Shown here: in pieces, positions 672 to 34,491 of the stretch
Numbering within the stretch: the first letter of the stretch is position 1
Layout: each line of letters begins with the position of its first letter
Virus record (IMG/VR): IMGVR_UViG_3300028887_000085
Coordinates: 32,001 to 96,000 of that record
Source: a virus
Lineage: Duplodnaviria > Caudoviricetes
Direction: 5' to 3' (one strand)
DNA: 64,000 bases
Position numbers and translations under genes: made by a program
The notes under the pieces: generated by a model
What the model saw: only the letters and a program-made list of their open reading frames with translations
Database searches by the model: none
What the model was told of the DNA's origin: nothing

Positions 672-697
672 GTCTCGCAGCAGGACAAAATGTAACC
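672..697 (-). promoter_or_regulatory. Early motif copy 1 (GGTTACA-N14-GAGAC on minus strand)
   Basis: Plus strand GTCTC 672-676, TGTAACC 691-697; upstream of DUF932. Confidence 0.8.
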
Positions 698-719
698 GGG
701 GGATCAGATATATTTTTGT

Positions 720-962
720 TCATCCCTCCTCTGAAAATTCTTCGTTTGCGACATCTCCCGCGAGCTGGAAGGCTTCGTGCGCGGCTTCTTCCAGCCGGTC
801 AATGGTGCGGGTGGCGTAGGGGCATTTTTCTATGAGCGCGACGGCTTCTGCTTTGAGGATATCGTGGGCGAAGTCCAGCGCGTCCACGGCATCGTCCTCC
901 GTCAGCAGCAGGGAAGCATAGCGGCTGACGATTTTCTGATAGGTTTCCTTTGACATGACCAT
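720..962 (-). CDS. Hypothetical protein
   Basis: 80 aa, AAGGAGG RBS. Confidence 0.75.
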   Translation of the reverse strand: MVMSKETYQKIVSRYASLLLTEDDAVDALDFAHDILKAEAVALIEKCPYATRTIDRLEEAAHEAFQLAGDVANEEFSEEG

Positions 963-980
963 GGGGTGATCCCTCCTTTA

Positions 981-1361
981 TTATGCGGCGGATGTGGCCT
1001 CGACGTAGGCGGAATGGAAACGGAGCAGACGGTCAAGGGAACGGCGGGTGTCCTGCATCAGCCGCTTGTAACCCGCGTTTTCCTCCCGCACTTTCCGCCG
1101 GTACTTCCTGGGTACGGATTCCGGGTCCGTGTAGTTCATTGCATAGGACATGGCCGCATATTCGGCGCAGCCCTTTTCCAGCGACACCGCCTCCGTGAAC
1201 CAGGCGTCAAGCTTTTGGATCGCGGCGTCGTTCTGGAAGGGAAAGAGCCGGAACATTTTGCAGAGCTTTTTCCAGGCGGAAAGATCAAGACGGATGAGAC
1301 TGTCCAGGGAGATTTCTGCCCGGAAAGAAGCATCATTTCGGATAGATATAACATTCTCCAT
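981..1361 (-). CDS. Hypothetical protein
   Basis: Start MENVISIR after AAGGAGG. Confidence 0.7.
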   Translation of the reverse strand: MENVISIRNDASFRAEISLDSLIRLDLSAWKKLCKMFRLFPFQNDAAIQKLDAWFTEAVSLEKGCAEYAAMSYAMNYTDPESVPRKYRRKVREENAGYKRLMQDTRRSLDRLLRFHSAYVEATSAA

Positions 1362-1366
1362 TTGCG

Positions 1367-1660
1367 CTACCTCCTTATGTATTTTTCCATGTACTTCATG
1401 CAGGGGTCGGTGACGGTGACAAGCGCCCGCTGCGCCCGGTAGTGTGTCTTCTCCGGGCAGCTCAGGATTTCCGCGTCGGCGTAGTTCCGCTTTGCCCAGC
1501 GGCACAGCCGGTCACATTCCTGATACAGTGTGTCCGCTTTGGTATAGGGCGTGGCCTTGGTGATCCAGATGGTGTAACCGGGGGAGGCGCGTTCATGCAC
1601 CGGCCCCAGGGCAAACTCGGAGCGGGACATAAGCTCTTGGACGTATTGAGGGATCGTCAT
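1367..1660 (-). CDS. Hypothetical protein
   Basis: Start MTIPQYVQ after GAGGAGG. Confidence 0.7.
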   Translation of the reverse strand: MTIPQYVQELMSRSEFALGPVHERASPGYTIWITKATPYTKADTLYQECDRLCRWAKRNYADAEILSCPEKTHYRAQRALVTVTDPCMKYMEKYIRR

Positions 1661-1662
1661 TT

Positions 1663-1866
1663 TCAGTCCTCCTCTCCCAGCTTGCAAAGCTTCGTGTTCA
1701 GGTCGCGCAGCTCGCAATAGTGCCGGATGATGGCCTCCATGGCCTCCGGGCACTCCGCGAGATAGGCGCGGGTCTTCGTCACGGCTTCGATCTTGCCGAG
1801 AACGGCGTCGATCAGCAGGGCCAGCTCCCGCGCCGTCAGGGTCACGCGGATGTTTTCTTTGCGCAT
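1663..1866 (-). CDS. Hypothetical protein
   Basis: 67 aa, tightly packed, RBS. Confidence 0.7.
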   Translation of the reverse strand: MRKENIRVTLTARELALLIDAVLGKIEAVTKTRAYLAECPEAMEAIIRHYCELRDLNTKLCKLGEED

Positions 1867-1868
1867 TG

Positions 1869-2117
1869 TCAGTCCTCCTCGTCTTTATCTTCTCCATATT
1901 CGGCGGTGTAGGTGTCGAATTTGAGTATTGCGATATCGTCATCGTTGGCGTCCGTTACGTCCAGGGTGCAGCCGTCGTAGCCGTTGCGCTCCGGATCGTA
2001 TAAGTTTTCCTCGTAAAGATAGGCGGCGTATTCTTCGGCATCGTCCGAGGATTCGGCATTTACGATGATGCGGTTGGTGTAGGTGACGGTGAATGTCACG
2101 ACAAAGGGCTTTTTCAT
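1869..2117 (-). CDS. DpnD/PcfM-like small acidic protein
   Basis: FVVTFTVTYTNRIIVNAESSDDAEEYA resembles the V-x-A-x-S-x-E-E-A signature. Confidence 0.55.
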   Translation of the reverse strand: MKKPFVVTFTVTYTNRIIVNAESSDDAEEYAAYLYEENLYDPERNGYDGCTLDVTDANDDDIAILKFDTYTAEYGEDKDEED

Positions 2118-2141
2118 ATGTTCGTATTCTCCTTTCCGAAA

Positions 2142-2522
2142 TTATTCGGCAACGGCGGTGAGGTTCCACGCATTGCCAAGCTCGTAGTACAGGCCGTACT
2201 TTTTGAAGATCGCTCGCAGTTCTTCCTCCACCCTCCAAGACGGTTCTCCATAGTTCAGGGCATCATATAGCGGGCCTTCAAAGGTCATGGTGAGGATGTC
2301 CCCGGCGTACTCGGTGATGCGGCGGGGGTCTTCGTTCTCCAGGACGATCAGGTTGTGAGGGTCATTGTAGCAGTATCGACCGTGACGGTCATCGGTGGAG
2401 AACGCTTTGCCGTTGAAGTAGATGGTGGTGTCCACCCACATATCCCGGTCCAGCAGGAATTTGCGGAGCTCTCTGGCGAGCTTTTCGATATTCGCTCTGG
2501 TCGGTATCTTTGCCATGTTCAT
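2142..2522 (-). CDS. Hypothetical protein
   Basis: 126 aa, GAGGAGG RBS. Confidence 0.75.
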   Translation of the reverse strand: MNMAKIPTRANIEKLARELRKFLLDRDMWVDTTIYFNGKAFSTDDRHGRYCYNDPHNLIVLENEDPRRITEYAGDILTMTFEGPLYDALNYGEPSWRVEEELRAIFKKYGLYYELGNAWNLTAVAE

Positions 2523-3076
2523 TCCTCCTCGATTCTCTTGATCTCCGCTTCCGCGCCGTCGTAGTCATCTTCGCTGAGACAGCCGCAGAAGGTATGGAAG
2601 TTGCAGTCTTCCAGCAGGTCTTCGATCTTCTCCCGCTGGATATCTTCCCGGTGGAGGCGCATAAGCTCCCGCAGGTCTTCCAGCGAGAAGCCCCAGCGGA
2701 TGGTCCGGGAAATGTCGCTGTAGGTCATGGTTTCCAGGGCTTTCTCCCAGTCTTCACAGATTTCTTCTTCCGTCATGGGTTCGGGAAGGTCACCGACTTC
2801 CAGGCTGGAGCAGTAGCCGTCAACATAGTACGTCACTTCCAGCTTTGGGAATTTCTGATGGATCATGTACTCGGTTGCGCGATAGTAAGCGCCGATGATG
2901 GAGTCGGTGATTTCATTGAGCCTTCCGATATCTTCAAATTCCTCCTTTGCGTAGTCGTTCATGTCATCAATCTCGCGGATGGAAAATCCCAGCTTTTCCA
3001 TGGTGTCCTCACACTCTTTTGCGACGCGCTCAATGGTTTCGGCATAAATTCCGAGAAATTCACAGGTAGAAATCAT
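2519..3076 (-). CDS. Hypothetical acidic protein
   Basis: 185 aa, AGGAGG RBS, follows motif copy 2. Confidence 0.8.
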   Translation of the reverse strand: MISTCEFLGIYAETIERVAKECEDTMEKLGFSIREIDDMNDYAKEEFEDIGRLNEITDSIIGAYYRATEYMIHQKFPKLEVTYYVDGYCSSLEVGDLPEPMTEEEICEDWEKALETMTYSDISRTIRWGFSLEDLRELMRLHREDIQREKIEDLLEDCNFHTFCGCLSEDDYDGAEAEIKRIEEE

Positions 3077-3115
3077 GCGTGTTCCTCCTATCGTTTTTTG
3101 TTTTGCGCCTTATAA

Positions 3116-3141
3116 GTCTCAGAGGAGCGGTTTTTGTAACC
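3116..3141 (-). promoter_or_regulatory. Early motif copy 2
   Basis: GTCTC 3116-3120, N14, TGTAACC 3135-3141. Confidence 0.8.
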
Positions 3142-3196
3142 GCCCCTCCGAAATTATTTTACGCTTTGTTTATTGTTCCCCCAAGACGGGAACCGG

Positions 3197-3478
3197 TCAC
3201 TGAAAGATGCGGAACTCCACCAGGTCGCCGTGGTGGATGTTGTTCCTGAAAAAGCGCTGCCCTTCCTCCTCCCGGTATGGCATGACATAGGCGCAGGTGC
3301 TGTTCTGATCCCGCATGTAGCGCAGCAGGTTCAGGGCCATGACGATCTCGGCGTCATCGAACGTTTCCCTTTCCTTGACGTAGCCCATGCTGTCACAGTG
3401 GGCCACGGAAACGCCCCATTTTGTGTTCTCGATCTCCAGAAAGCAGCCGTTGTTCACTTCGATTCTCCGCATTGTCAT
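3197..3478 (-). CDS. Hypothetical protein
   Basis: 93 aa, RBS. Confidence 0.7.
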   Translation of the reverse strand: MTMRRIEVNNGCFLEIENTKWGVSVAHCDSMGYVKERETFDDAEIVMALNLLRYMRDQNSTCAYVMPYREEEGQRFFRNNIHHGDLVEFRIFQ

Positions 3479-3484
3479 TCCTCC

Positions 3485-3688
3485 TTATACTTCCGAAGTG
3501 TCGATGTTCAGGATGATCCGGCCTTCGTCCAGGTCGAAGCTCGAAACGTCGTAGTCAGAAAACGCGCTCTGCTGCGCGTCCCACATGCTCCCGACGAAAA
3601 CCTCATGCTCGATTGCCGGATTCATGTCATAGATGCGGACTTCCACCGTATCGTCAGTGCAGAGACCGCAGAAATCGTAAACGTCCAT
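3485..3688 (-). CDS. Hypothetical small acidic protein
   Basis: 67 aa, AAGGAG RBS. Confidence 0.7.
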   Translation of the reverse strand: MDVYDFCGLCTDDTVEVRIYDMNPAIEHEVFVGSMWDAQQSAFSDYDVSSFDLDEGRIILNIDTSEV

Positions 3689-3705
3689 TGTTTAATGCTC
3701 CTTTC

Positions 3706-4044
3706 TCAGCTCAAAGCATAGGCCAAATCGAAGAGAAGGTCTTCGATATCCCTGGCGTCATCCAGCAGGTCTTGAAGGGAATCGGGTTCCCCCCGATTTG
3801 CGCCGTACCATTCGGCGGCGTGCTGTTCAGGATCAAAGTTATTGTAGCGCTCGATAAGCATGTCAAAGATTTCGGGAATGCTGTGGTAATACTCGGTGAT
3901 AATCAGGTCTTCACCGGCGGGAGAAGACCTCTCGAACTCCACATACTTTTCCGTTCTTCCGCTTTGGAGCGCTTGTTCTCCGAATGTCACGCGCCAGCCG
4001 AGCTTTTCGGCGGCGGCGATGACGGCGGCTTTTGTCGTTTTCAT
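3706..4044 (-). CDS. Hypothetical protein
   Basis: 112 aa, AAGGAG RBS. Confidence 0.75.
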   Translation of the reverse strand: MKTTKAAVIAAAEKLGWRVTFGEQALQSGRTEKYVEFERSSPAGEDLIITEYYHSIPEIFDMLIERYNNFDPEQHAAEWYGANRGEPDSLQDLLDDARDIEDLLFDLAYALS

Positions 4045-4265
4045 CTGTTCTCCTTTCGTTTTTCGCCGTAATAGACGTAGCTGCCACGGGGACCGGTCAC
4101 GACGATGCTTCCGCCGCGCCCGGAATAGTCACGGCGAAAGTTTACATAGCCCGCCCACATGACCGCCTCCATGGGGGAGTGGGCTTCGATAATTTTATCC
4201 GGGGCGAGAAGGCCGTCCCGGATATCATAGACCTTGTATGAGTTCATGGTGATCTCCTTTCGCAT
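4041..4265 (-). CDS. Hypothetical protein (start probably 4247)
   Basis: AAGGAG precedes MNSYKVYD. Confidence 0.65.
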   Translation of the reverse strand: MRKEITMNSYKVYDIRDGLLAPDKIIEAHSPMEAVMWAGYVNFRRDYSGRGGSIVVTGPRGSYVYYGEKRKENR

Positions 4266-4281
4266 TGTCGCTGTCTTTATA

Positions 4282-4307
4282 GTCTCCGCGGGGCGTGGAT
4301 TGTAACC
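4282..4307 (-). promoter_or_regulatory. Early motif copy 3
   Basis: GTCTC 4282-4286, N14, TGTAACC 4301-4307. Confidence 0.8.
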
Positions 4308-4324
4308 GCCCCATAAAAATTTCT

Positions 4325-5047
4325 TCAGGCCCTTTTTTCGTTTGCCTTTGCGGTGCGGTAGCCGGTGCCATGCTTCGTTTCCGCGCTGACGATCTTCCCG
4401 GAGGAAAGCAAATCCTCAAAGATGGAATGCACATAGCTGTAACCCGCGCCGTTGTCCTGATAGCGTTCAGCGCCCCGGCGGGGAATGTGGTGCTTCTCCG
4501 AAACGCGTCGGACGGGGCCGCTGAAGAAATCGTTGCTCACGATATACAGGTTGCTTCGCTTTGTCTTGAATTCCGTCAAAAGCTCTGCGGAAATTTCTTC
4601 CCGCCGGTCCTTCAGGATGTCCAGATATTCCTCGTTGCTGATGGGGAAGACCTCATGGTACACGTCCACCCAGCGGACAGATACGGTCTCGGCGGCGTCC
4701 AGGGCTTCCGCAATCGGCTTGACCTTCGCTTTCGCCACGGTGCCGGAAATGTTGTGCGATTCTGCGTACAGGTGTTCCATGGGGTAGCCCTCTGTGCGGC
4801 CTCCGATACCTTCGGAGATTCCGAAGTCGGCCACGATTTTTTTCACCTCCGCATGGAAGCGCTCGCGGTCGGCGGGATCGGTGAAGCTGCCGTACATTCC
4901 CGCTCCTTTGGTGTCGATGCGGAAATAGACCTGGATAAAGCTGTCAGCGGGGAAGGGGCCGTCAGGGTTCCAGTTGTCGGTCATGTGGCCGTCCGGGCCG
5001 TACTGCGGGCCGTTCATGTTGTCGTGGTATTTGATCTTTTCGCTCAT
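4325..5047 (-). CDS. Hypothetical protein
   Basis: 240 aa, AAGGAG RBS. Confidence 0.8.
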   Translation of the reverse strand: MSEKIKYHDNMNGPQYGPDGHMTDNWNPDGPFPADSFIQVYFRIDTKGAGMYGSFTDPADRERFHAEVKKIVADFGISEGIGGRTEGYPMEHLYAESHNISGTVAKAKVKPIAEALDAAETVSVRWVDVYHEVFPISNEEYLDILKDRREEISAELLTEFKTKRSNLYIVSNDFFSGPVRRVSEKHHIPRRGAERYQDNGAGYSYVHSIFEDLLSSGKIVSAETKHGTGYRTAKANEKRA

Positions 5048-5094
5048 GGTGATCTCCTTTCAAGTTACCGGCTTGCGCCGTTGCTGCTTATATG

Positions 5095-5120
5095 GTCTCG
5101 CTCAGGCCGGTTTTGTAACC
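5095..5120 (-). promoter_or_regulatory. Early motif copy 4
   Basis: GTCTC 5095-5099, N14, TGTAACC 5114-5120. Confidence 0.8.
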
Positions 5121-5323
5121 GGGCCGGAAAAAGAATTTTCAAGGGCCGCTATGCGGCGGATCGTGTCCTCCGTCAGGCCGCCCGCCCGGAGGCAGGCGGC
5201 GGCGACATTATAGTGCTTGCGGGCGCGGAATAGGTCGCCCCGGCGCAGCTTTGCAGCGCAGTTATACAGGGCGCGGCGAGCGAAAAATTCGTTGCTTCCT
5301 TCCAGCTTTGCGATATGGTCCAT
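5102..5323 (-). CDS. Hypothetical protein
   Basis: 73 aa, coupled to the upstream ORF. Confidence 0.6.
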   Translation of the reverse strand: MDHIAKLEGSNEFFARRALYNCAAKLRRGDLFRARKHYNVAAACLRAGGLTEDTIRRIAALENSFSGPVTKPA

Positions 5324-5643
5324 CAGTCTCCCTCCGCGAAAAGGCTGTCATATTCCGGCTTGTACCACGGTGCCCCTGGCATGAAACAGCCGATCGATTC
5401 TATCTCGTGCACCGTCAGCGGCGCACCGCTTTCCCGGAAACAGATGCGGCGGCTGAGAAGCTTCCCGCCGCGAAAAACCTCCACAAGTTTCAGTTCCAGA
5501 TAATCCCAAAGCGGCTGCAGATTGCATTTTTTGAGATACGCGAACAGTTCCGCCGTCGCCCTGCTCCACTGCGCTTCATCCAGCGCGACGCCATATAACA
5601 AACGGTCACACATTTTCTGCCATTCGATGCTGTTCGCTTTCAT
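5323..5643 (-). CDS. Hypothetical protein
   Basis: 106 aa, overlapping stop/start. Confidence 0.7.
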   Translation of the reverse strand: MKANSIEWQKMCDRLLYGVALDEAQWSRATAELFAYLKKCNLQPLWDYLELKLVEVFRGGKLLSRRICFRESGAPLTVHEIESIGCFMPGAPWYKPEYDSLFAEGD

Positions 5644-5831
5644 CAGATGACCGCCCCTTCCGCCGTGACGATGCAGGCGCTTTTTCCGTCGTGGGATCGG
5701 TAATACTCATTTCCGGCCTCGTCCGTCCAGAAGACTTCGTGCATCTTCTCGGGCTTATAGGACGCGGACATGGGCCGCAGCTTCCCCACGATCTCAAAAC
5801 CTACGCGCTTTGCATACTGCCGGATCGTCAT
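5643..5831 (-). CDS. Hypothetical protein
   Basis: 62 aa, GGAGG RBS. Confidence 0.7.
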   Translation of the reverse strand: MTIRQYAKRVGFEIVGKLRPMSASYKPEKMHEVFWTDEAGNEYYRSHDGKSACIVTAEGAVI

Positions 5832-5832
5832 T

Positions 5833-6357
5833 TCATGCGTCCTCCCATTCCGTTTCGTTGAACTTCTGAATGAACTCCTGGAAGGAAAGCTCCTTCCAAT
5901 AGTTCACGGTTTTGCTGCGCCACTTCCCGGCCTTGTACTTGAAGACGGTGATCCCCACGGTCCCAAATTGCACATAGCAAGAACTGGAAATGTCCATCGT
6001 TTCGCCGTGGCCGCTGACCTTCACGCGATACTGCGCAGACTCCCAATTCAAATCGAGGATGCGTTTGTCGTTTGCCGTCATATCAGAATCCCTCCCGATC
6101 ATCTGTTTTTCAAGGTCCGCAATATCCTCCGGAGACAGCCATTCCGGCGGTACAGGCAGGGAAGCATAGACTTCCCGCATGAGGTCGATCTGCTTGCGTT
6201 CGTCCTGCGTCCAAAGGTGCTGCGCATACCGTGCCCCGTAGCCCAAGTAATACAAGCAATCCAGGCGCAGCCGATCCAGGAACATATAGCGGAATTTCAC
6301 GTCGCGCTTTTCCAGGTCATACGCTTGCATCAAGGTCGTTTTTTCGGTGCGATCCAT
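5833..6357 (-). CDS. LPD11 (large polyvalent protein-associated domain 11) protein
   Basis: FRYMFLDRLRLDCLYYLGYG...HLW...QIDLM...PEWLSPEDI matches the LPD11 pattern. Confidence 0.75.
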   Translation of the reverse strand: MDRTEKTTLMQAYDLEKRDVKFRYMFLDRLRLDCLYYLGYGARYAQHLWTQDERKQIDLMREVYASLPVPPEWLSPEDIADLEKQMIGRDSDMTANDKRILDLNWESAQYRVKVSGHGETMDISSSCYVQFGTVGITVFKYKAGKWRSKTVNYWKELSFQEFIQKFNETEWEDA

Positions 6358-6662
6358 CAGGTGTCCTCCTCTGCGCCTGCTTTCTGACGCTTCATTTGCT
6401 TTAAGACTTCCAGCTTTTGAATCAGCTTCCCAATGTTCGGCTGCTCTGCGTTCCACGGCAATTCGATATAATGAGAGACCGTAAAGATGGCGTTGTCGAT
6501 AAAAACGCAACCGTTCGCTTTGCAGCGTTCTATCATTTCGTCCGCAGTCCGGCAAAGACTTTCTACATGCTCGCGCCTTCGCTTCGCCTCGTCATAAGGT
6601 TCTTCACCTTGAATGTAGGCACGCGCCTGCTCGTCGGTTAATGTCCTGCGCTTTTTTTGCAT
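6357..6662 (-). CDS. Hypothetical protein
   Basis: 101 aa, RBS. Confidence 0.65.
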   Translation of the reverse strand: MQKKRRTLTDEQARAYIQGEEPYDEAKRRREHVESLCRTADEMIERCKANGCVFIDNAIFTVSHYIELPWNAEQPNIGKLIQKLEVLKQMKRQKAGAEEDT

Positions 6663-6819
6663 ATCGTTTTCTCCCTTCCGAATTAAAGACTTTATGGAAC
6701 GGCCCGTGTCCGGGCCGCTCGAAAAGGCTTCAAATCACGGGGACGGGGATCGTTCTGTTCTGTGTATCCGCGCTGAAAGCTGTTATATTACCTCCTTCTG
6801 AATTTTTATTCTGTTTATT

Positions 6820-7263
6820 TCAGGCCGCCTCCTTTCGGCTTTCCGGGGTGAAGCCCTGGTCCTCGATGTTCTTCAGCCAGTGCCAGAGAAAATCATCCAG
6901 GGACGTTCTCAGGGACGGAGAATAAAGCCGCTGGCCGTTCCGGGTCCGGTAGACCTCTTGATACAGCCCCATGTAGTCGTTCCGAAAGTTCAGGGGATGG
7001 ATGACGCCCTTCTCCCGGTCCACGGAAAACTCGATGCAGGGATCGGCCATCAGGTCGCCGTTCTGCTCGCCGTAGTGGGCCATGTAGTAGACCGGCAGGC
7101 CCCGATAGTCCGTGTATCCCAGGGATTCCATGGACAGGTCCATATATCCCGCAGCGGTGAAGCGCAGCCAGGACGTTCCGTCGTCGCAGGTCTTCTCGTC
7201 CAGTGCCTTCAGGTAGGGCAGAAGCATCTTGTAATTGGTCGTTCCGTGTTTCGTTGCTCTCAT
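6820..7263 (-). CDS. DUF6908/DUF1249-like protein
   Basis: YMDLSME...AHYGEQNGDLMADP...FLWHWLKNIEDQG. Confidence 0.7.
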   Translation of the reverse strand: MRATKHGTTNYKMLLPYLKALDEKTCDDGTSWLRFTAAGYMDLSMESLGYTDYRGLPVYYMAHYGEQNGDLMADPCIEFSVDREKGVIHPLNFRNDYMGLYQEVYRTRNGQRLYSPSLRTSLDDFLWHWLKNIEDQGFTPESRKEAA

Positions 7264-7343
7264 TTTGTTTATCTCCTCTCATTTCAATTTCCGTTCAATT
7301 TTTAGGGGCCGCCTTGTGTCGGCGGCCCCGTGCTGTTCTTATC

Positions 7344-7369
7344 GTCTCGAAGCGGCCTCGATTGTAACC
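7344..7369 (-). promoter_or_regulatory. Early motif copy 5
   Basis: GTCTC 7344-7348, N14, TGTAACC 7363-7369. Confidence 0.8.
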
Positions 7370-7398
7370 GGTCCACAAAATTTTAACCGCCGATCATG

Positions 7399-7779
7399 TC
7401 ACGCCACGTCGCTTTTGGACGCCTCGTCCCGGTAAAGCTCAATGGCCCGCAGGACAAACGCCTTGACCTCCTTTTTGTTGACGTTCATTTTCTCCGTGTT
7501 CGTTTCCACCGTGTAACCGTAGCTGTTCCGCTTCCAGGTGACGCCCTCCGCATTGCCGCAGATATCGGTGTAGATGCGGCTCAGGGCCGTCGTCGTCAGG
7601 TCGAAGTGCTCAAAGGTGATCTCCGCCTCGCCGCCGGTCCTCAGGATCTTCAGGGCGTCGTTTATCAGCTTGTCCACGGATTCATAGTAGTCGATCTCAT
7701 AGAGTTTTTGACCTTCCAGCTTGCCGAAGAATCCGTTTGCCCTCGCCTTGAAAGAATAGCTCATGAAGAATGCGCTCAT
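7399..7779 (-). CDS. Hypothetical protein
   Basis: 126 aa, GGAGG RBS. Confidence 0.75.
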   Translation of the reverse strand: MSAFFMSYSFKARANGFFGKLEGQKLYEIDYYESVDKLINDALKILRTGGEAEITFEHFDLTTTALSRIYTDICGNAEGVTWKRNSYGYTVETNTEKMNVNKKEVKAFVLRAIELYRDEASKSDVA

Positions 7780-8015
7780 GGATTTGACCTCCGTTCAATT
7801 TTTGTTCTGCTCTTATAGTCTCGATAAAGCACGGATTGTAACCGGCGGCCCGAAAAAATTTCCGGCCCGCGCAGAGCGCCTACAGCGCCCAGGATCAGCA
7901 GCGCAGCGCCGAAGTATGTTCCGGCCCAGGGACCGCCGTCAAGCTCCGTCAGCAGCAGCAGGAAGCCCAGGAACGCAATCCCGGCGGCCAGGTTTTTGAT
8001 TTTTGAGGTGCGCAT
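7776..8015 (-). CDS. Small membrane protein (two hydrophobic segments)
   Basis: AAGIAFLGFLLLL and YFGAALLILGAVGAL; 3' end overlaps motif copy 6. Confidence 0.55.
   Translation of the reverse strand: MRTSKIKNLAAGIAFLGFLLLLTELDGGPWAGTYFGAALLILGAVGALRGPEIFSGRRLQSVLYRDYKSRTKIERRSNP
7818..7843 (-). promoter_or_regulatory. Early motif copy 6
   Basis: GTCTC 7818-7822, N14, TGTAACC 7837-7843. Confidence 0.8.
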
Positions 8016-8017
8016 GT

Positions 8018-8200
8018 TCAGTCCTCCCACCACTTGAACCATCCGGCAGGCGCAGCCGTGTACTGCTCATAGTAGAAGCCCACGATCCGCTCCCACTCGT
8101 CGGGCCGACATTCCCCCAGGCGCTTGCAGGATTCAAGCGTTTCCACACATTCCCGCCGGTATTCCTCCGGCATAGCAGCATATTTTTCCCGTGTCAGCAT
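8018..8200 (-). CDS. Hypothetical protein
   Basis: 60 aa, AAGGAG RBS. Confidence 0.6.
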   Translation of the reverse strand: MLTREKYAAMPEEYRRECVETLESCKRLGECRPDEWERIVGFYYEQYTAAPAGWFKWWED

Positions 8201-8301
8201 TTATTGTGATCTCCTTCCTCTTGATAGCTTTATGAAGCGCCGGGCCCCTCCACGTCCGGCGCTTGAAAAACCGTCAAGATTTTGTCCTGCGATTTGGATA
8301 A

Positions 8302-8649
8302 TTATGCAACCACCTCCAGCAGGTCGGAGAAGCGCTCCAGCATTTCCGCCTTGTTGGCCTCGTAAACCTTCAGGGCCTGCTCCTCCGCTTTTTTGCTCTT
8401 GCGGGCGCACTCCACCACGCACTTTTTCCAGCCGGAAAAAGCGGCGTAGCTCTCCATGGTCACGCCGTAGTCCGTCGTACTCCGCTCCACCGGGGAAACG
8501 CTCACATAGTAGCCGCGAGCCTCGGTCCTGCCGGTAAAGTAGTTCATGCCGCCCAGGGAATAGTACAGCTCGCACTTCAGGAAGTGGCTGGGCTTGTTGG
8601 TGTTGATGTACTCTTTCTTGATCTGCTGCATGATGTTATCTCCTCTCAA
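8302..8649 (-). CDS. Hypothetical protein
   Basis: 115 aa; true start probably MQQIKKE. Confidence 0.75.
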   Translation of the reverse strand: MRGDNIMQQIKKEYINTNKPSHFLKCELYYSLGGMNYFTGRTEARGYYVSVSPVERSTTDYGVTMESYAAFSGWKKCVVECARKSKKAEEQALKVYEANKAEMLERFSDLLEVVA

Positions 8650-8687
8650 AGTGTTGTTTTGTATTTCGGTTTAGCTCTGCTCTTATA

Positions 8688-8713
8688 GTCTCGCAGGATC
8701 TCCTTTTGTAACC
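8688..8713 (-). promoter_or_regulatory. Early motif copy 7
   Basis: GTCTC 8688-8692, N14, TGTAACC 8707-8713. Confidence 0.8.
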
Positions 8714-8783
8714 TCCCTCCGAAAAAGATTTTTTGTCCGCCGAATAGCAGGGCCGCCGGTCATCCCGGCGGCCCGCAGCCTGT

Positions 8784-9269
8784 TCAATTCTCCTGCATGG
8801 CGTAATACAGCGGCTTGCGCTGAGAGGCGTCCAGGACCTCGCTGCACCGGCGCATGGCCTCCTTTGCCTGCTTCAGCGCCCTGACCGTTGCGCCGATCTG
8901 CTCGTCGCTCGCGTCATCCGGCAGCTCGTCCACGGCGTTCACCAGCCTGTTTTTCTCCTTGTGGATGTAGAAGCTCGCCACACGGCACACGCCCACGGCA
9001 TCCCGGTAGGCCGCCGCCAGCTCGTCGAAGTCCGCCTGCAGCTTGTCCCGTTCGTCCATGGTGTCCAGGCTGATCTTTGCCACGTCCGCCGCTTTTTTCC
9101 TGGCCTCCTCCAGGTCGCGCACCGGCGAATTGCCGAAGTCGTTATCGATATTGTCCCGGCAGATGTCCACGATCCCGGCGAATGTCAGGGCGATGTAGCT
9201 GTCCTCCCCGGCGGATTGAATCAGGTTTTCGATCTTGTCCAGGATCTTGCGCTCTTCAGCTTTTGTCAT
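8784..9269 (-). CDS. Hypothetical coiled-coil protein
   Basis: 161 aa, GGAGG RBS. Confidence 0.8.
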   Translation of the reverse strand: MTKAEERKILDKIENLIQSAGEDSYIALTFAGIVDICRDNIDNDFGNSPVRDLEEARKKAADVAKISLDTMDERDKLQADFDELAAAYRDAVGVCRVASFYIHKEKNRLVNAVDELPDDASDEQIGATVRALKQAKEAMRRCSEVLDASQRKPLYYAMQEN

Positions 9270-9314
9270 GATTTTTTATCCTCCGAATTTTGAATTTTGT
9301 TTCCTGCCTTTAAG

Positions 9315-9340
9315 GTCTCGCAGTCAAGCAAATTGTAACC
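9315..9340 (-). promoter_or_regulatory. Early motif copy 8
   Basis: GTCTC 9315-9319, N14, TGTAACC 9334-9340. Confidence 0.8.
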
Positions 9341-9379
9341 GGCGGAGAAAATTTCTTTTCTCCGCCGGTCTGTCGTTTT

Positions 9380-9937
9380 TTATCCGGCGATGGCCGCATA
9401 AGCCATCCCGCCGCGCCGCCGGTCGTCTTCCTCCGCGCCCAGGCGTTCCGAGCCGAATTGCAGCCTGATCCTGTCCATGCTCCACGCCTTTTTGCCCTTG
9501 TAGCTCATGGCGGCATCCTCCGGGAAGTGCCAGGACCATTTTTCCTTCCCCTTGCTCCACTTGCAGCCCAGGGCCTTCAGCCGGTCCTTGTGCCTGCGCG
9601 TTTCGCCGCCGATCCAGAGCCAGCGCCCGCAAAGCTCAACCTCCAGCCCGTCCAGCTTGAAAAGCTCCGCGCAGATGTTGATGAAGTCCTCCGGCGTCTC
9701 TTTCGTCGCCGTCTCCGCCCTGTAGGTCTTCGGGCCGTCGGGCCGAGAGCTCTTGTGGATGTCCTTCAGCTCGTCGAACAGGATCGTATATTCGGCGTTG
9801 ATCTCCTGCATTTTCACCTTGTCGCCGCCCCGGTCAGGATGATTTTCAAGGGCCAGCTTGCGGTAGATGCTCTTCAGGTCTTCCACGTTGTCGGGAACGG
9901 GAACGATCCAGCGGATTTTCTGTTTTGCGAATTTCAT
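9380..9937 (-). CDS. J-domain (DnaJ-like) protein
   Basis: LKSIYRKLALENHPDRGG...MQEINAEY with the HPD motif; C-terminal ELCGRWLWIGGET...LKALGCKWS domain. Confidence 0.85.
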   Translation of the reverse strand: MKFAKQKIRWIVPVPDNVEDLKSIYRKLALENHPDRGGDKVKMQEINAEYTILFDELKDIHKSSRPDGPKTYRAETATKETPEDFINICAELFKLDGLEVELCGRWLWIGGETRRHKDRLKALGCKWSKGKEKWSWHFPEDAAMSYKGKKAWSMDRIRLQFGSERLGAEEDDRRRGGMAYAAIAG

Positions 9938-10018
9938 TTTTCGACCTCCGATTTTTGTTTTCCGAATTATTTATGCCCCGAAGAATTTCCCCAGGGCTTG
10001 ATTTCCGTCGTCTTTATA

Positions 10019-10044
10019 GTCTCGATGACCGGCGGATTGTAACC
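10019..10044 (-). promoter_or_regulatory. Early motif copy 9
   Basis: GTCTC 10019-10023, N14, TGTAACC 10038-10044. Confidence 0.8.
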
Positions 10045-10111
10045 GCGCCGGTGAGAAAATTTTTGGCGGCTTTATGAGGCGGCCCGCAGCAGCGGGCCGC
10101 CTGAAAAACCG

Positions 10112-10384
10112 TCAAGCTGTTTCTTTCTCTGCCTCCTCCCGGAAGTCCTCCCACTCGTCCCAGGCGGCCCGGCAGCCGTCCTCGTCCTTGTAGGGAACGA
10201 ATTTCACCAGGTAATTGCTTGCCCAGGGGTTCAGGTAATGCTCATAGACGAAAGCCCAGCCCCGGCGGCAGGCTACCACGAAATTATCCAGCAGGCAGCC
10301 TTCCACGGCCTCCACGGTCTCGCCGTCGTTCTGCGTGTACCAGATATTCAGGCGTTTTTCGCCGGTGATTTGAAAAACCGTCAT
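10112..10384 (-). CDS. Hypothetical protein
   Basis: Start MTVFQITG overlaps the upstream stop. Confidence 0.7.
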   Translation of the reverse strand: MTVFQITGEKRLNIWYTQNDGETVEAVEGCLLDNFVVACRRGWAFVYEHYLNPWASNYLVKFVPYKDEDGCRAAWDEWEDFREEAEKETA

Positions 10385-10542
10385 TTCGTCGCCTCCGCAA
10401 TCTCCAGCTCCAGCGCCAGAGCCCGCAGCGCCGCAACTCGCCCGTGATTGCTGCCCCGTCTGCATTTTTCCAGGTCAGCCTCCGCCGCTCGCAGGTGCTT
10501 TTTGATGATCTTTTCCATTTCTTCAACCGTGAGATTTTTCAT
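10381..10542 (-). CDS. Hypothetical 53-aa protein
   Basis: MKNLTVEEMEKIIKKHLRAAEADL...; AAGGAGG RBS; too short for the ORF track. Confidence 0.65.
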   Translation of the reverse strand: MKNLTVEEMEKIIKKHLRAAEADLEKCRRGSNHGRVAALRALALELEIAEATK

Positions 10543-10611
10543 GTTTGCCTCCTTTAATGTTTCAAGCCCCAGGGCGTTTGCCCCAGGGCTTGTGATTTGC
10601 TTGTCTTTTTG

Positions 10612-10800
10612 GTCTCGCTGGATTGTGTTTTGTAACCGGCGGAAGAAATTTATTTTTCGTCGCCGTCGGCACCGTTCGCCTGGACGCTTGCCTTTAAGGT
10701 CTCGCAGGCGGCCCGATTGTAACCGGCGGTGAAAAATTTTTCGCGGTTTGTTCTGCCGCCGCCAGAATTATAAGGTCTCACTGTTCTGGATTTTGTAACC
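10612..10800 (-). promoter_or_regulatory. Early motif copies 10, 11 and 12 (stacked)
   Basis: GTCTC/TGTAACC starting at 10612/10631, 10699/10718 and 10775/10794, all N14. Confidence 0.8.
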
Positions 10801-10811
10801 TGGCCGGAAAA

Positions 10812-11117
10812 TTATTTTTCCTCCGGCCCGGCCCCGTCCATGGACCCGGCGGCCTCCAGATCGTCAGCCGCAGCAGCACCGGCCCCGGCGGCCCGGCCCC
10901 GGCCAGGCTTGCGCGGGCCGAATTCGCCATGCAATCCGAGATCAAGACCGGCGGCCCGGCCCAGGACGGCAGCGGCCCAGGCATTCACGGAACTGAAGCC
11001 CGCAGCCGCAGCAGCGGCCCGCAGCTTTTCCCGTGATCCCGCCGGGAACTGTAAGAGGATGCGGTCATAATTCCTCTTTTTATAGGATTCATTCGCTTTG
11101 CTTTTCGCCGTCGCCAT
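10812..11117 (-). CDS. Arc/ribbon-helix-helix DNA-binding protein
   Basis: KANESYKKRNYDRILLQFPAGSREKLRAAA...SVNAW; AGGAGG RBS. Confidence 0.75.
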   Translation of the reverse strand: MATAKSKANESYKKRNYDRILLQFPAGSREKLRAAAAAAGFSSVNAWAAAVLGRAAGLDLGLHGEFGPRKPGRGRAAGAGAAAADDLEAAGSMDGAGPEEK

Positions 11118-11146
11118 TCGTTTTTCACCTCCTGGCATACATTATA

Positions 11147-11172
11147 GTCTCGCAGCGGGCCGAAATGTAACC
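11147..11172 (-). promoter_or_regulatory. Early motif copy 13 (upstream of the RHH gene)
   Basis: GTCTC 11147-11151, N14, TGTAACC 11166-11172. Confidence 0.8.
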
Positions 11173-11216
11173 CATGATTTGATATTTTCTAAAGATATTG
11201 ATGATTTAACTAAATC

Positions 11217-11270
11217 CGGTATATACCGAACAGTAAACGGCTTGACAAATCGGCATATACCGATTATAAT
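11217..11270 (+). promoter_or_regulatory. Consensus sigmaA promoter with two palindromic operators
   Basis: TTGACA 11242-11247, 17 nt, TATAAT 11265-11270; CGGTATATACCG 11217-11228 and CGGCATATACCG 11251-11262. Confidence 0.85.
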
Positions 11271-11349
11271 AGTTGACAAGATGAGGCCCCGCAGAGGACC
11301 CCCTGACCCGCCCCGGCGGGCAGGCACATTTGAAAGGAGACCCCCGAAA

Positions 11350-12459
11350 ATGACGAAATCCGAAATGATGATCCGCGCCCACGCCTGGACCCGTGAAACC
11401 GTCGCCGCCTACCCCGGCAGCAGCTACCGCGCCACCCTGGCCGCCGCCCTGCACGAGCTTTGGAAGGACATCCGCAGCGAGGACGCCCGCAGCGCCGCCG
11501 CCGTCCGCCTGACCGTTGCCGCCGTCCTCCAGGCCGCCGAGGACGCCGTGACCCGGCGCAGCGCCGACGCCGACGCCGCCGCCCGTGCATGCTGCGCGGA
11601 GCAGCAGACCGGCAGCGAGCAGCAGCAGCAGGAGCAGGAACCGGCCACCCTGGCCGAATTCCTCCAGCAGCCCGGAGAAGTACAGCTTGAAACCCTCCGC
11701 AAGTTTGCCGCCCGATGCCCCGGCTACGCCGCCCGGCAGGTCAAAAAGACCACCGACCCCGAGACCGGCGAGACCGTCACCGTCCCGGCCCCGGCAGCTT
11801 GGGCCGACTGGATGATCCCCCGCAGCAAAGGCGGGCTTGAGCTTGAACCCTGGGCCGTTGCCGTTGACACCATCGCCGCCGAAGCCTGGACGCGCCTGGC
11901 AACCTCCGAGGACGACGGAAACCCGCTCGCGTGGATTCTCGCCCGCGCCTGCCGCGCCGCCTGCGTGAGGCTTTCCAAGGTATACCGTGACGCGCCGAAC
12001 AACCGCAGCCGCAGCAAGCGGCAGGACGGCAGCGGTACTATTATCGACGCCGTTTCCCTTGACGATCCCGATTACAGCGCCGCCGCCCATTTCCCCGGCC
12101 CGGAATCCGCCGCCGTCACCCGTGAAGCCATCCGCCAGGCCGCCAACGACCCCCGAGACTTTGCCGTCCTGGACCTGCGCAGCCAGGGACAGACCCTGCA
12201 GCAGATCGCCGCCCGCCTGGGCATCAGCCATCCCGCCGTCCTCAAGCGCCTCCGCCGCATGAAGGAACGCATGGAGGACGCCAAGACGGAGCAGGCCGCC
12301 AACGACCTCGACGCCGCAGTCATGGCCGCAGCCGGTCAGAGCTACCGCCCCCGGAAGAGCTGGAGGCCCGACAACGCCAGCAGCAGCACCGGCGGCAGGG
12401 AGAACGCGCAGCAGCCCCGCAGCGCCGCCGCCACCGTCAGCACATGGGCCGGGAAGTAA
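11350..12459 (+). CDS. Atypical ECF-like sigma factor / sigma region-4 HTH protein
   Basis: AAAGGAG RBS; region-2-like DTIAAEAWTRL..PLAWILARACR; VSLDD..PGPES linker; region-4 PRDFAVLDLRSQGQTLQQIAARLGISHPAVLKRLRR. Confidence 0.7.
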   Translation: MTKSEMMIRAHAWTRETVAAYPGSSYRATLAAALHELWKDIRSEDARSAAAVRLTVAAVLQAAEDAVTRRSADADAAARACCAEQQTGSEQQQQEQEPATLAEFLQQPGEVQLETLRKFAARCPGYAARQVKKTTDPETGETVTVPAPAAWADWMIPRSKGGLELEPWAVAVDTIAAEAWTRLATSEDDGNPLAWILARACRAACVRLSKVYRDAPNNRSRSKRQDGSGTIIDAVSLDDPDYSAAAHFPGPESAAVTREAIRQAANDPRDFAVLDLRSQGQTLQQIAARLGISHPAVLKRLRRMKERMEDAKTEQAANDLDAAVMAAAGQSYRPRKSWRPDNASSSTGGRENAQQPRSAAATVSTWAGK

Positions 12460-12495: not shown

Positions 12496-12526
12496 GCCCG
12501 GCCCGTTTTGGGCCGGGCTTCTCTTT
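12496..12526 (+). terminator. Intrinsic terminator after the sigma gene
   Basis: GCCCGGCCC-GTTTT-GGGCCGGGC followed by TTCTCTTT. Confidence 0.7.
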
Positions 12527-22928: not shown

Positions 22929-23846
22929 ATGGACGAGTTGGGAACTTGGGTGGCGATACCACGGGAAGAACCTCCTATGAAGAACATCTGTGTCAAAATC
23001 GGAGATGAAGGGCCGGACGGATCTATCATCAAAAACGGAGTTACCTTTACGTATCTCCAGCACGGCGACTGCCTGGAAGAAATGGCGAAACTCCCGGACG
23101 GAATCGTTGACATGGTGCTCTGCGACCTTCCTTATGGTCAGAGCAAGCTCCGCTGGGATAGCGTGATCCCCTTCGATCCGCTTTGGCAGCAGATCAACCG
23201 CGTCTCCAAGGAAAACGCAGCCGTCGCCCTCTTCGGCTCGGAACCATTCACCAGCGCTCTTATCATGAGTAATCCCAGGCAGTTCCGGCAAAAGCTGACG
23301 TGGCTCAAGACACGCCCCACGAACGTGTTTAACGCGAAGCGGCAGTTCATGAACTGGACGGAGGATATAGCGGTATTTTATCGCAAATCGCCCACCTTTC
23401 ACCCGCAGATGCGGACGGACGGTAAGTTTACCGGAGAGAAGAGGCAGCACACGCATACGGACCGTTCGGCGGGGATATTCCAGCAGACGGGAGAACGAGA
23501 GGGGTACGTCCACAAGGGAAACGGCGGTCTGTTTTACCCAAAGACCGTTCTGGAATTCTCCAATGTACACCACGGGAGTGAATGCTATCACCCAGTTCAA
23601 AAGCCGGTGGCACTTTTGGAATACCTTATCCGCACCTACACCAACCCCGGAGACTTGGTGCTGGATATGTGCATGGGTTCCGGAAGCACCGGCGTCGCTG
23701 CGGTTAGCACGGGCAGGAGCTTCGTTGGAATCGAGATCGACGAGGGGTACTACGAGACGGCAAAAAAGCGGATAGTGGAGAGGATAAACGGATCATGGAA
23801 CGTATCGAATTTGGATATAACCACGGTTTCACGCGGGGAATCCTGA
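22929..23846 (+). CDS. N4/N6 DNA methyltransferase (beta class)
   Basis: CDLPYG, HPVQKPVALLEYLI, DMCMGSGST. Confidence 0.9.
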   Translation: MDELGTWVAIPREEPPMKNICVKIGDEGPDGSIIKNGVTFTYLQHGDCLEEMAKLPDGIVDMVLCDLPYGQSKLRWDSVIPFDPLWQQINRVSKENAAVALFGSEPFTSALIMSNPRQFRQKLTWLKTRPTNVFNAKRQFMNWTEDIAVFYRKSPTFHPQMRTDGKFTGEKRQHTHTDRSAGIFQQTGEREGYVHKGNGGLFYPKTVLEFSNVHHGSECYHPVQKPVALLEYLIRTYTNPGDLVLDMCMGSGSTGVAAVSTGRSFVGIEIDEGYYETAKKRIVERINGSWNVSNLDITTVSRGES

Positions 23847-26209: not shown

Positions 26210-27241
26210 CTACTTTTTCTCAGAAAAATAGTCGTCGATCTGTTTGTGCGCTCCGTCACGGAGGTTGTCGCGCAGGTGGGTGTAGATGCCCATGGTGGTC
26301 GTCGCATTCTTGTGACCGAGCTGGGCTTGGGCGGCTATCACCGGAACGCCAGCCTCGTACATGGCGGTTGCGTAGTAGTGCCGGAGCTGGTGGCAGGTGA
26401 TATCATGGCCGATGGCGGTGCAATACTTCTGCCACCGGTAGATGAAGTTGCCTTTATTCATATAGTTTTTTCCGTCGGGGCCGGGGAATACCGGCCCCGA
26501 TTTTTTGTTTGGCAGGATCTTATTGAGGGCTTCCGGGTAATAGACTTCTCGGACACCAGCTTCGGTCTTCGGTTCCTTTACCTCCGGAAAGTTTGGAGTG
26601 AACTGAATGGCGCGGCGGACATAGATAATCCGGCTTTTCCGGTCGATATCTTCGTAGCGCAGCGCCAGGGCTTCGCCACGGCGCAATCCGGTGTAATAAA
26701 GGGTGAGGGCAAAAGGACCCATCTCTTCTCCCGCAGACGCAAGGACGGCGGCAAGAGCGGCATCCTTCGGGACGTCACGACGCTGTACGGACAATCCCTT
26801 CGGCAGTGATATCACGGCAGACGTATTTACGGGAAGAATACCTAACAGAACTGCCCGCTTACACACCATGCGGATCACGGTAAGGTGGAGCTGCACCGTG
26901 CGCTTGGAATACTTCCTGCGAGCCATGCGATTGAGGAAGTTTTGCAGCTCCAGCGGGGTCACTTCTTCTGCGGGTATATCACCCAGCTCTTCCTTCAGAC
27001 GGCGGCAGGGCGCGACATAAGATTCCGCCGTCTTGAAAGCGGACTCGGCATCGTGCTCCGCCTGCCAGGCGTCGATCAGACTGCCGAACGTCACCGGCTT
27101 CGGCTTCTTCAGCTCTTCGATCCGCCGGAACAGCTTCTCCGGGTCTTTGTCGCAGACCGTATGCCACTTTCCATCGGAGTCCTTATACTTCCCCTGATAC
27201 GATCCGTCTTTCCTCAGCGTGAAGAGTTTGGCGTAATTCAT
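26210..27241 (-). CDS. int: Tyrosine integrase
   Basis: YTGLRRGE, PKT, HQLRHYYAT, LGHKNATTTMGIYTH catalytic motifs. Confidence 0.95.
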   Translation of the reverse strand: MNYAKLFTLRKDGSYQGKYKDSDGKWHTVCDKDPEKLFRRIEELKKPKPVTFGSLIDAWQAEHDAESAFKTAESYVAPCRRLKEELGDIPAEEVTPLELQNFLNRMARRKYSKRTVQLHLTVIRMVCKRAVLLGILPVNTSAVISLPKGLSVQRRDVPKDAALAAVLASAGEEMGPFALTLYYTGLRRGEALALRYEDIDRKSRIIYVRRAIQFTPNFPEVKEPKTEAGVREVYYPEALNKILPNKKSGPVFPGPDGKNYMNKGNFIYRWQKYCTAIGHDITCHQLRHYYATAMYEAGVPVIAAQAQLGHKNATTTMGIYTHLRDNLRDGAHKQIDDYFSEKK

Positions 27242-34143: not shown

Positions 34144-34491
34144 ATGGCAAGCTCAAATAGCAAATTCACGCCGGACGAGCTGGAGAGCATCTTCATCTGG
34201 GATCTGCTCTGCGAAGCCATACCTCTGACGGCGGAGGAACGGCGGGATATCCGCGAGCGCGACACCTATGCGTCCACCGGGAATGTTTCGACGGCCCGCG
34301 TCAAAAAGCCATTGACCGAAGAACAGCGCAAGGCGAAGAACGAAGCCAAGCGCCGCTGGCGGGAAGAGCACAAGGAGCAGATCGCCGCTTACCGGGAAGC
34401 CCACCGGCAGGAGATCAGAGAGAGGCAGAGGGCTTATGACCAGGCAAAAAGCAAGAGCAAACGAACCCAAGTCCAACAGACGCAGCCGTGA
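34144..34491 (+). CDS. Hypothetical basic protein
   Basis: 115 aa; same repeat style as 30691-31269. Confidence 0.6.
   Translation: MASSNSKFTPDELESIFIWDLLCEAIPLTAEERRDIRERDTYASTGNVSTARVKKPLTEEQRKAKNEAKRRWREEHKEQIAAYREAHRQEIRERQRAYDQAKSKSKRTQVQQTQP

Follow-up and report, generated by a model that had tools for sequence, protein, structure and literature searches.

Sigma factors that switch the host RNA polymerase in a temporal cascade are known from the Bacillus phage SPO1 (gp28 and gp33-34) and from T4 (gp55) (mentioned in PMC9429907). They serve middle or late genes there, and gp55 depends on a sliding clamp and recognises a -10-like element alone. The sigma factor SaPh711_gp47 of phage 7-11 is highly diverged and directs the host core polymerase to eight late promoters with the consensus GTAAtg-16-aCTA, where transcription starts 6–9 bp from the element. 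The early genes of this phage are transcribed by host sigma-70, while gp47 drives the late structural genes (PMC8948821). In phiEco32, gp36 together with its co-factor gp79 acts as an extracytoplasmic function (ECF)-like sigma factor on single-element promoters (tAATGTAtA) and has no region 4 homology (PMC12276001, PMC8948821). For ECF sigma factors, an extended acidic linker and a C-G before the -10 element have been reported (PMC6372665). Here, a stretch of 64,000 nucleotides was analysed that corresponds to bases 32001–96000 of the 111,110-bp viral record IMGVR_UViG_3300028887_000085 and is called the window in the following. It contains a repeated bipartite motif, GGTTACA-N14-GAGAC, facing away from a gene at 11350–12459 (plus strand) that encodes a putative sigma factor of 369 aa. 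The motif sites probably represent a phage-specific promoter class read by this protein, which would be a diverged two-domain ECF-like sigma factor. Positions refer to the window unless stated otherwise.

The motif (GTCTC-N14-TGTAACC on the plus strand) was found in 13 exact copies in a pattern scan of the window, all of them on the minus strand between 672 and 11172. The chance expectation for the window is 0.01 copies, and none of the shuffles reached 13. No exact copy was detected in the remaining ~53 kb of the window. The observation of 13 fixed-spaced sites on one strand, made in the initial annotation of this DNA, was thereby confirmed, as was the absence of the motif from the rest of the window. 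When two mismatches were permitted, just four extra weak matches appeared in the window compared to 3.3 expected by chance. A motif scan of the full genome, which had been proposed as a check, gave 15 exact copies at 14 distinct places and one extra site with one mismatch at genome position 28794 (AAGAC for GAGAC), again in a single orientation. The initial annotation had also assumed a private block of ~11 kb. This holds for the sites within the window, but the regulon is not confined to 11 kb and reaches ~23 kb leftward. The sites beyond the window, the second sigma gene within it and the conserved TATAAG-like element next to the boxes had escaped that annotation.

Two of the 15 exact copies are one site doubled within a direct repeat. 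The repeat units of 7.2 kb (genome 13785–20961 and 103934–111110) are 99.1% identical and carry one promoter site, and the repeat reaches the contig end. The 13.8 kb preceding the repeat differ, and the arrangement is either a duplicated tail-fibre/lysis-type module or an assembly chimera of two variants.

The sites share further features around the two boxes. An A/T run of 6–12 nt, typically AAAATTTT, ends 5–14 nt upstream of GGTTACA in 15 out of 15 sites examined. The closing bases of the 14-nt spacer are usually (t)gc, directly before GAGAC. A TATAAG-like stretch begins 0–2 nt after GAGAC and is often followed by CAG, and most sites have a strong ribosome-binding site and an ATG 29–82 nt downstream. 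The A/T tract upstream, the TAA-like tail and the leftward gene start downstream, which were part of the first description, were thus found again in the site anatomy. GGTTAC and GAGAC are separated by 15 nt, and a C-G lies just upstream of box 2. In both respects the sites are similar to promoters of ECF sigma factors (PMC6372665) and to those of the phage 7-11 sigma factor (GTAAtg-16-aCTA; PMC8948821). As an additional observation, the A/T tract often forms the centre of a GC-armed inverted repeat, e.g. GGCGGAGAAAA...TTTTCTCCGCC at 9338–9369 and at other sites, which may double as a hairpin ending the upstream gene.

All sites lie on the minus strand and are numbered from left to right. Site 13 (11147–11172) is followed by TATAAT and is located in the divergent intergenic region, before the first gene of the presumed regulon (10812–11117, minus strand). 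This gene encodes a protein of 101 aa with a ribbon-helix-helix (RHH)-like sequence pattern and without a Pfam match. Sites 12 (10775–10800), 11 (10699–10724) and 10 (10612–10637) form a tandem trio, 76 and 87 bp apart, before one small gene, site 10 being 69 nt away from the ATG of the small open reading frame 10381–10542. The arrangement resembles a stack of promoters that would serve very high expression. Site 9 (10019–10044) precedes a DnaJ-domain gene (9380–9937), followed by site 8 (9315–9340) before gene 8784–9269, site 7 (8688–8713) before gene 8302–8631 and site 6 (7818–7843) before gene 7399–7779. Site 5 (7344–7369) lies before a DUF6908 gene (6820–7263), site 4 (5095–5120) before gene 4325–5047, site 3 (4282–4307) before gene 4041–4247 and site 2 (3116–3141) before gene 2519–3076. 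Site 1 (672–697) has its ribosome-binding site and ATG ~41 nt downstream.

Host-type promoters are not enriched in this block. A scan for sigma-70-type promoters between 1 and 12600 gave five compared to 4.6 expected, and none of the 13 motif sites qualified. Same-strand genes further left (genome 20.5–32.7 kb) carry sigma-A-like promoters instead. The possibility that TATAAG serves as -10 element of host sigma-A with GTTACA as -35 element was considered and rejected, because the spacer would measure 19–21 nt and the last base of the hexamer is rarely T (two out of 13 sites, with G or A in the other 11). At promoters of primary sigma factors, -7T is nearly invariant. The melted -10 region may be formed by bases of GAGAC or by those of the following TATAAG-like element.

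The candidate sigma gene is divergent from the motif block and starts with the ATG at 11350 behind GAAAGGAGA. It is preceded by a perfect consensus promoter of the sigma-A/sigma-70 type (TTGACA-17-TATAAT, 11242–11270, plus strand), the sole 12/12 match in 12.6 kb. Two operator-like elements were read directly from the sequence, namely the perfect palindrome CGGTATATACCG at 11217–11228 and its near copy CGGCATATACCG at 11251–11262, the latter occupying the spacer of this promoter. Their position suggests that the sigma gene is subject to repression, either as negative feedback or as lysogenic shut-off, and the RHH-like protein encoded at 10812–11117 is a possible feedback regulator. The gene appears as a monocistronic unit closed by a bidirectional terminator at 12496–12518, a GC-rich hairpin with T-runs on both strands.

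An AlphaFold model based on the family alignment was used to define the domains of the protein. It starts with two N-terminal helices (residues 3–20 and 26–88), followed by a helical sigma-2-like domain with a beta-hairpin insert (~98–215). The linker (216–248) is disordered and acidic and carries an invariant D-P-D motif. A helix-turn-helix (HTH) domain (~250–317) comes next, and the conserved motif W-x-P-D-N-A-S lies in a disordered tail at the end of the protein. Nothing folded lies between the sigma-2-like and the sigma-4 domain, and a helical extension of ~90 residues precedes sigma-2. When folded alone, the sigma-2-like domain reached a predicted template modelling score of 0.74. In a comparison of this domain-only model with 48,161 representative chains, the top matches were mostly sigma-2 domains with Z-scores of 5–6 and a root-mean-square deviation (rmsd) of ~3 Å over 75–87 residues. 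The best ones were sigma-B (Z 6.0, rmsd 2.8, 82 residues) and region 2 of sigma-E (Z 5.8), and SigC, domain 2 of sigma-A, sigma-H, sigma-W and pro-sigma-K were also among them. The C-terminal domain (249–317) matched SigD (Z 7.4), CnrH, SigK and region 4 of sigma-E with Z-scores of 6–7.4; LuxR-type HTH domains matched it equally well at fold level. With Foldseek, nearly all top matches of the whole model were ECF sigma factors at E-values that were not significant, and the domain-only model produced nothing beyond noise matches to ribosomal protein S7.

Profile searches were carried out with the close family only (profile A1), with 82 family members (profile A5) and with the sigma-2 segment alone (profile A3). 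Profile A5 matched E. coli sigma-E with an E-value of 4.5e-6 over chain residues 46–186, covering regions 2.2 to 4.2, followed by CnrH (1.9e-5) and AlgU (9.5e-5). Across both domains only sigma factors aligned with this profile, and matches to LuxR-type proteins were confined to the HTH. The PDB search with profile A1 returned chiefly LuxR-type HTH matches, together with CnrH at an E-value of 0.06. In profile-profile comparisons, A5 and A4 aligned over the HTH only, and A2 and A4 over regions 2.2–4 with 58% probability. The family comprises 43 close homologs, several of them on contigs of 80–110 kb, and ~130 more distant ones. Nineteen out of 40 distant relatives matched Pfam Sigma70_ECF (PF07638), with one listed example above its cut-off, and the nearest clusters in the ESM Atlas consist of viral proteins of 240–275 residues, partly with Sigma70_ECF. 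For the protein itself, Pfam gave weak Sigma70_r4 and r4_2 matches and a generic C-terminal HTH, and PHROGs gave weak matches to phrog_351, phrog_1740 and phrog_3282 (annotated sigma factor) with E-values of 0.003–0.03. The phage collection of GenBank yielded a single weak match at the protein level and none at the DNA level. A LuxR/GerE-type activator was also considered, as the HTH matches NarL and RhlR, and was rejected; the upstream domain is sigma-2-like and not a receiver or autoinducer-binding domain. Each of these lines is modest, but all are concordant, and they support the protein as an ECF-like sigma factor that has diverged strongly and carries an additional domain at its N-terminus. 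The region-2-like segment and the sigma region-4 HTH behind an unusual N-terminal extension, as initially annotated, are therefore backed by profile A5, by the Pfam matches of distant relatives and by the fold searches with the predicted structure, albeit with modest scores.

Ten further loci were fetched through homologs of the candidate gene, giving 11 loci including the window. The layout of candidate gene, divergent intergenic region and a leftward block of small genes is the same in all related loci. When gapped word pairs were counted in an unbiased way, a single bipartite motif dominated in each locus and invariably pointed away from the gene, with e.g. 11 and 8 sites in relatives compared to 0.01 expected. 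The promoter class thus adjoins the candidate gene in each of the 11 loci. The spacing is fixed within every lineage and the architecture is kept, while the box sequences differ in at least seven distinct combinations. In the reverse direction, public metagenome and viral collections were searched with a 19-base pattern of the motif, which gave no match, and with a 16-base pattern, which gave 114 loci with single matches, no cluster and no homolog of the candidate gene. These isolated matches are read as chance. Presence of the motif in relatives lacking the gene had been named at the outset as an argument against the sigma reading; a motif cluster without the gene was not seen among the 114 loci.

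The recognition helix of the HTH and the boxes were compared between the loci. The window and L009 share the helix SHPAV(L/I)KRL, box 1 GGTTACA and the main box 2 GCGAGAC. L024 (SKTAVIKRR) has the same main box 2 with GGTTACT as box 1. A second group has GGTTGCA as box 1, namely L014 (helix TRQAVEKHL, main box 2 GCGTCAC), L013 (TRQAVEKHL, AGCGYCGCC), L015 (SRQAVEKRL, AGCGYCGCC), L010 (TRQAVEKHL, GAGTTACC) and L016 (TRQAVEKHL, mainly GCGAGTCA), and L022 (SRQGVEKHL) combines GGTTGC(A/T) with AGCGTCAC. In L011 and L012 (SQGAVARRL), box 1 GGTAATA is found with ACCGYGC, and in L023 (KQAAIARRL) with GCGCGGG. Box 1 thus tracks the recognition helix without exception and in three classes: HPAV(L/I)KR or KTAVIKR goes with GGTTAC, RQ(A/G)VEK(H/R) with GGTTGC and Q(G/A)A(V/I)ARR with GGTAAT. 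Arg-Gln in the helix accompanies G at position 5 of box 1.

Box 2 appears to follow the sigma-2 module in most cases. L013 and L015 have N-terminal and sigma-2 modules that are 100% identical and the same main box 2, but their sigma-4 domains are only 49% identical. Conversely, L013 and L010 share 90% identity in sigma-4 and the same box 1, while their N-terminal and sigma-2 modules are 44% identical and box 2 differs. Between L010 and L016, two adjacent residues of the region-2.4-like helix differ (YH vs KR), and a homologous promoter with the same spacer occurs in two versions, one with GTTACC and one with GAGTCA. As far as a correlation between sequences can tell, these natural chimeras are what modular reading by sigma-4 (-35) and sigma-2 (-10) would predict.

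Several points weigh against the candidate protein as the reader of these sites. It stays under every curated sigma cut-off (TIGR02937 25.1 and 26.7 bits vs 42.9; Sigma70_r4 15.8 bits vs 24.1), and a Sigma70_r2 match was sought in it and not found. The structural Z-scores (5–8) are modest, the Foldseek E-values were not significant, and a profile-profile comparison of A3 with the family of the canonical sigma factor of this phage gave no match. On the protein tree, the three box-1 classes probably go back to only about two independent changes, and part of the correlation could stem from the gene and its promoters being physically linked. Moreover, in each of L015, L016 and L022 a single box 1 is combined with two or three types of box 2. 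Promoters of a 'foreign' box-2 type are found in distal gene cassettes with box 1 unchanged, which suggests a cassette exchange between phages of common sigma-4 specificity, and the minority types were probably imported by recombination. Finally, the boxes vary between lineages but the TATAAG-like element is retained, which would also fit a constant partner such as host sigma-A. The sigma-fold protein might accordingly be a DNA-bound activator or sigma-appropriation factor that binds both boxes and recruits the host sigma-A holoenzyme, with TATAAG as -10 element and no usable -35 element. The A/T tract is as constant as the TATAAG-like element, as expected for a constant host component; the scores under the sigma cut-offs and an HTH that matches LuxR/NarL-type activators as well as sigma-4 point the same way, and the N-terminal extension and the conserved tail motifs could be docking sites. 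We consider such an activator unlikely, since the hexamer ends in G or A rather than T in 11 out of 13 sites, its offset from the boxes floats by 0–2 nt and the middle domain resembles sigma-2, i.e. the core-binding and -10-reading module, and not an activator domain. In addition, an acidic disordered linker is typical of sigma factors (PMC6372665).

The canonical sigma gene in the same genome could in principle be the reader as well. It is located at 34436–34993 (plus strand), adjoins a RecT-like gene and encodes an unambiguous sigma-70-family protein of 185 aa (TIGR02937 76 bits, Sigma70_r2 50 bits) with ~40 homologs, mostly on phage-like contigs. The adjacent sigma-like protein would then be e.g. 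a regulator or an anti-sigma-like partner. No other over-represented bipartite word pair that could serve this second sigma factor was found in the genome outside the left block, and its copy in the relative G001 is 39% identical with an HTH that also differs, so that co-variation with box 1 would be possible. Nevertheless, this assignment seems improbable to us. The gene lies 23 kb away in a recombination/replication module, whereas the promoter class adjoins the candidate gene in all 11 loci, and boxes 1 and 2 track the two domains of the candidate. In another phage, a homolog of the second sigma factor is found in a module with integrase, YqaJ, RecT, SSB and replication genes and with no motif in 20 kb. 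The 101,509-bp contig of L010 carries 11 sites and the candidate gene and has no listed homolog of the second sigma factor, a weak argument as the profile search shows the longest contig of each cluster only. That the sites are no promoters at all but sites of another kind, e.g. operators through which a repressor keeps the block silent during lysogeny, or signals for packaging or recombination, is very hard to reconcile with their anatomy. The phage has an integrase, and highly invariant bipartite sites could be operators. However, the boxes are asymmetric, have one orientation and are followed at 29–82 nt by a ribosome-binding site and ATG; the sites also contain an UP-like tract and, at the place expected to melt, an A/T-rich stretch, the block is otherwise without promoters, and tandem stacking before one gene is typical of promoters.

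The reading of the sites as promoters is supported by their anatomy, by the lack of an excess of sigma-70-type promoters in the block and by the co-variation of boxes and domains. The claim that the adjacent sigma factor reads a GGTTACA/GAGAC promoter class is thus supported computationally on the same grounds. The analysis shows the statistics and anatomy of the motif, the fold and distant homology of the protein and the co-variation among phages, and we infer core polymerase binding, the assignment of the elements, the timing and the function of the block. According to the proposed mechanism, the host sigma-A polymerase would transcribe the candidate sigma gene alone from its perfect consensus promoter with the operator-like palindromes. 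The candidate sigma factor would then displace the host sigma factor on the host core RNA polymerase. Its sigma-4 HTH would read box 1 (GGTTACA) at the -35 position, and its sigma-2-like domain box 2 (gcGAGAC) as the upstream duplex part of the -10 region that gives specificity. The TATAAG stretch would be the melting or start region, presumably read by conserved parts of sigma-2 or by the polymerase, and the AAAATTTT tract would act as UP-like element. Transcription would be expected to start ~6–10 nt past GAGAC, near the conserved CAG, and the leftward block of small genes would thereby be switched on.

The products of the leftward block include DnaJ-domain, LPD11, DUF6908 and RHH-like proteins, and the leftward genes of relatives encode DUF932, Lar-like, DUF6927 and DUF8033 proteins. 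Judging from this gene content, the block probably has early host-takeover or anti-defence functions. Besides the motif, three minus-oriented copies of another conserved element were found in the block at 6690–6735, 8228–8275 and 10070–10110. The element consists of TTGA(A/C)G..TTTTC(G/A)AGCG, a GC-rich hairpin of 9–10 bp and (T/C)CATAAAG and also occurs in L010, L011 and L015. It was tried as a canonical terminator and rejected, as the U-run precedes the hairpin and the element fails in either direction. Two copies precede genes without a GGTTACA site. The element may be another promoter or an RNA element, and its CATAnnnT resembles sporulation-type -10 boxes. Other genes in the window encode a tyrosine-type integrase (26210–27241, minus strand; PHROG integrase, E 3e-70), a DNA methyltransferase (22929–23846) and a portal protein (44561–46288). 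Given the integrase gene, a temperate life style is plausible. The phage DNA was found in bovine and other gut metagenome runs, all of them DNA runs, and no RNA run was listed.

The variation of boxes and domains offers a ready-made natural experiment on DNA reading by ECF-like sigma factors and is a possible source of orthogonal sigma/promoter pairs for the engineering of Gram-positive bacteria or anaerobes. Furthermore, the motif marks the transcription units of some 30 small unknown genes, which likely have host-takeover or anti-defence functions, and thus aids the annotation of large rumen phages. On a more speculative note, these cattle-gut phages may possess fast-evolving, naturally orthogonal sigma/promoter pairs, whose modules and boxes are swapped and re-tuned independently, as a private code for an early block; we regard this as a tentative idea. 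If true, the private code would perhaps guard against cross-activation and against theft when relatives or satellites infect the same cell, and the constant TATAAG together with the N-terminal domain would mark a non-canonical initiation, e.g. an unusually long distance between -35 and -10 or a host factor acting jointly.

Phage sigma factors with private promoters are already known from phage 7-11, phiEco32, SPO1 and T4, including the classic timing of expression. The families and promoter sequences of SPO1 and T4 are unlike those of the candidate. As an ECF-like phage sigma factor, here predicted, that redirects the host core polymerase, the candidate resembles phiEco32 gp36, but it has a clear sigma-4 HTH and a -35-like box, and no gp79-like partner was identified. 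With ECF group 4 (E. coli sigma-E, M. tuberculosis sigma-L and sigma-H, CnrH) it shares sigma-2 and sigma-4, the acidic linker, the rigid bipartite promoter and the C-G (PMC6372665, PMC6648896). It differs from this group by its scores under curated thresholds, the extra N-terminal domain and other box sequences. Positive autoregulation is not apparent either, as a sigma-A promoter precedes the candidate gene and none of the cognate sites faces it, and no adjacent anti-sigma factor was recognised. No detectable sequence relation between the candidate and gp47 of phage 7-11 was shown, and the N-terminal extension, the beta-hairpin insert in sigma-2 and the conserved C-terminal tail are features unlike gp47. 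The promoters differ from those of 7-11 by the additional TATAAG-like element and A/T tract, and gp47 drives late structural genes, in contrast to the small early-type genes beside the sigma gene described here. Both systems have in common a diverged phage sigma factor, predicted in the present case, with a small private promoter set of bipartite consensus and fixed spacing. What is new compared to the known systems is an unannotated, fast-diversifying family of such putative sigma factors that was missed by curated models and is accompanied by a well-defined promoter class.

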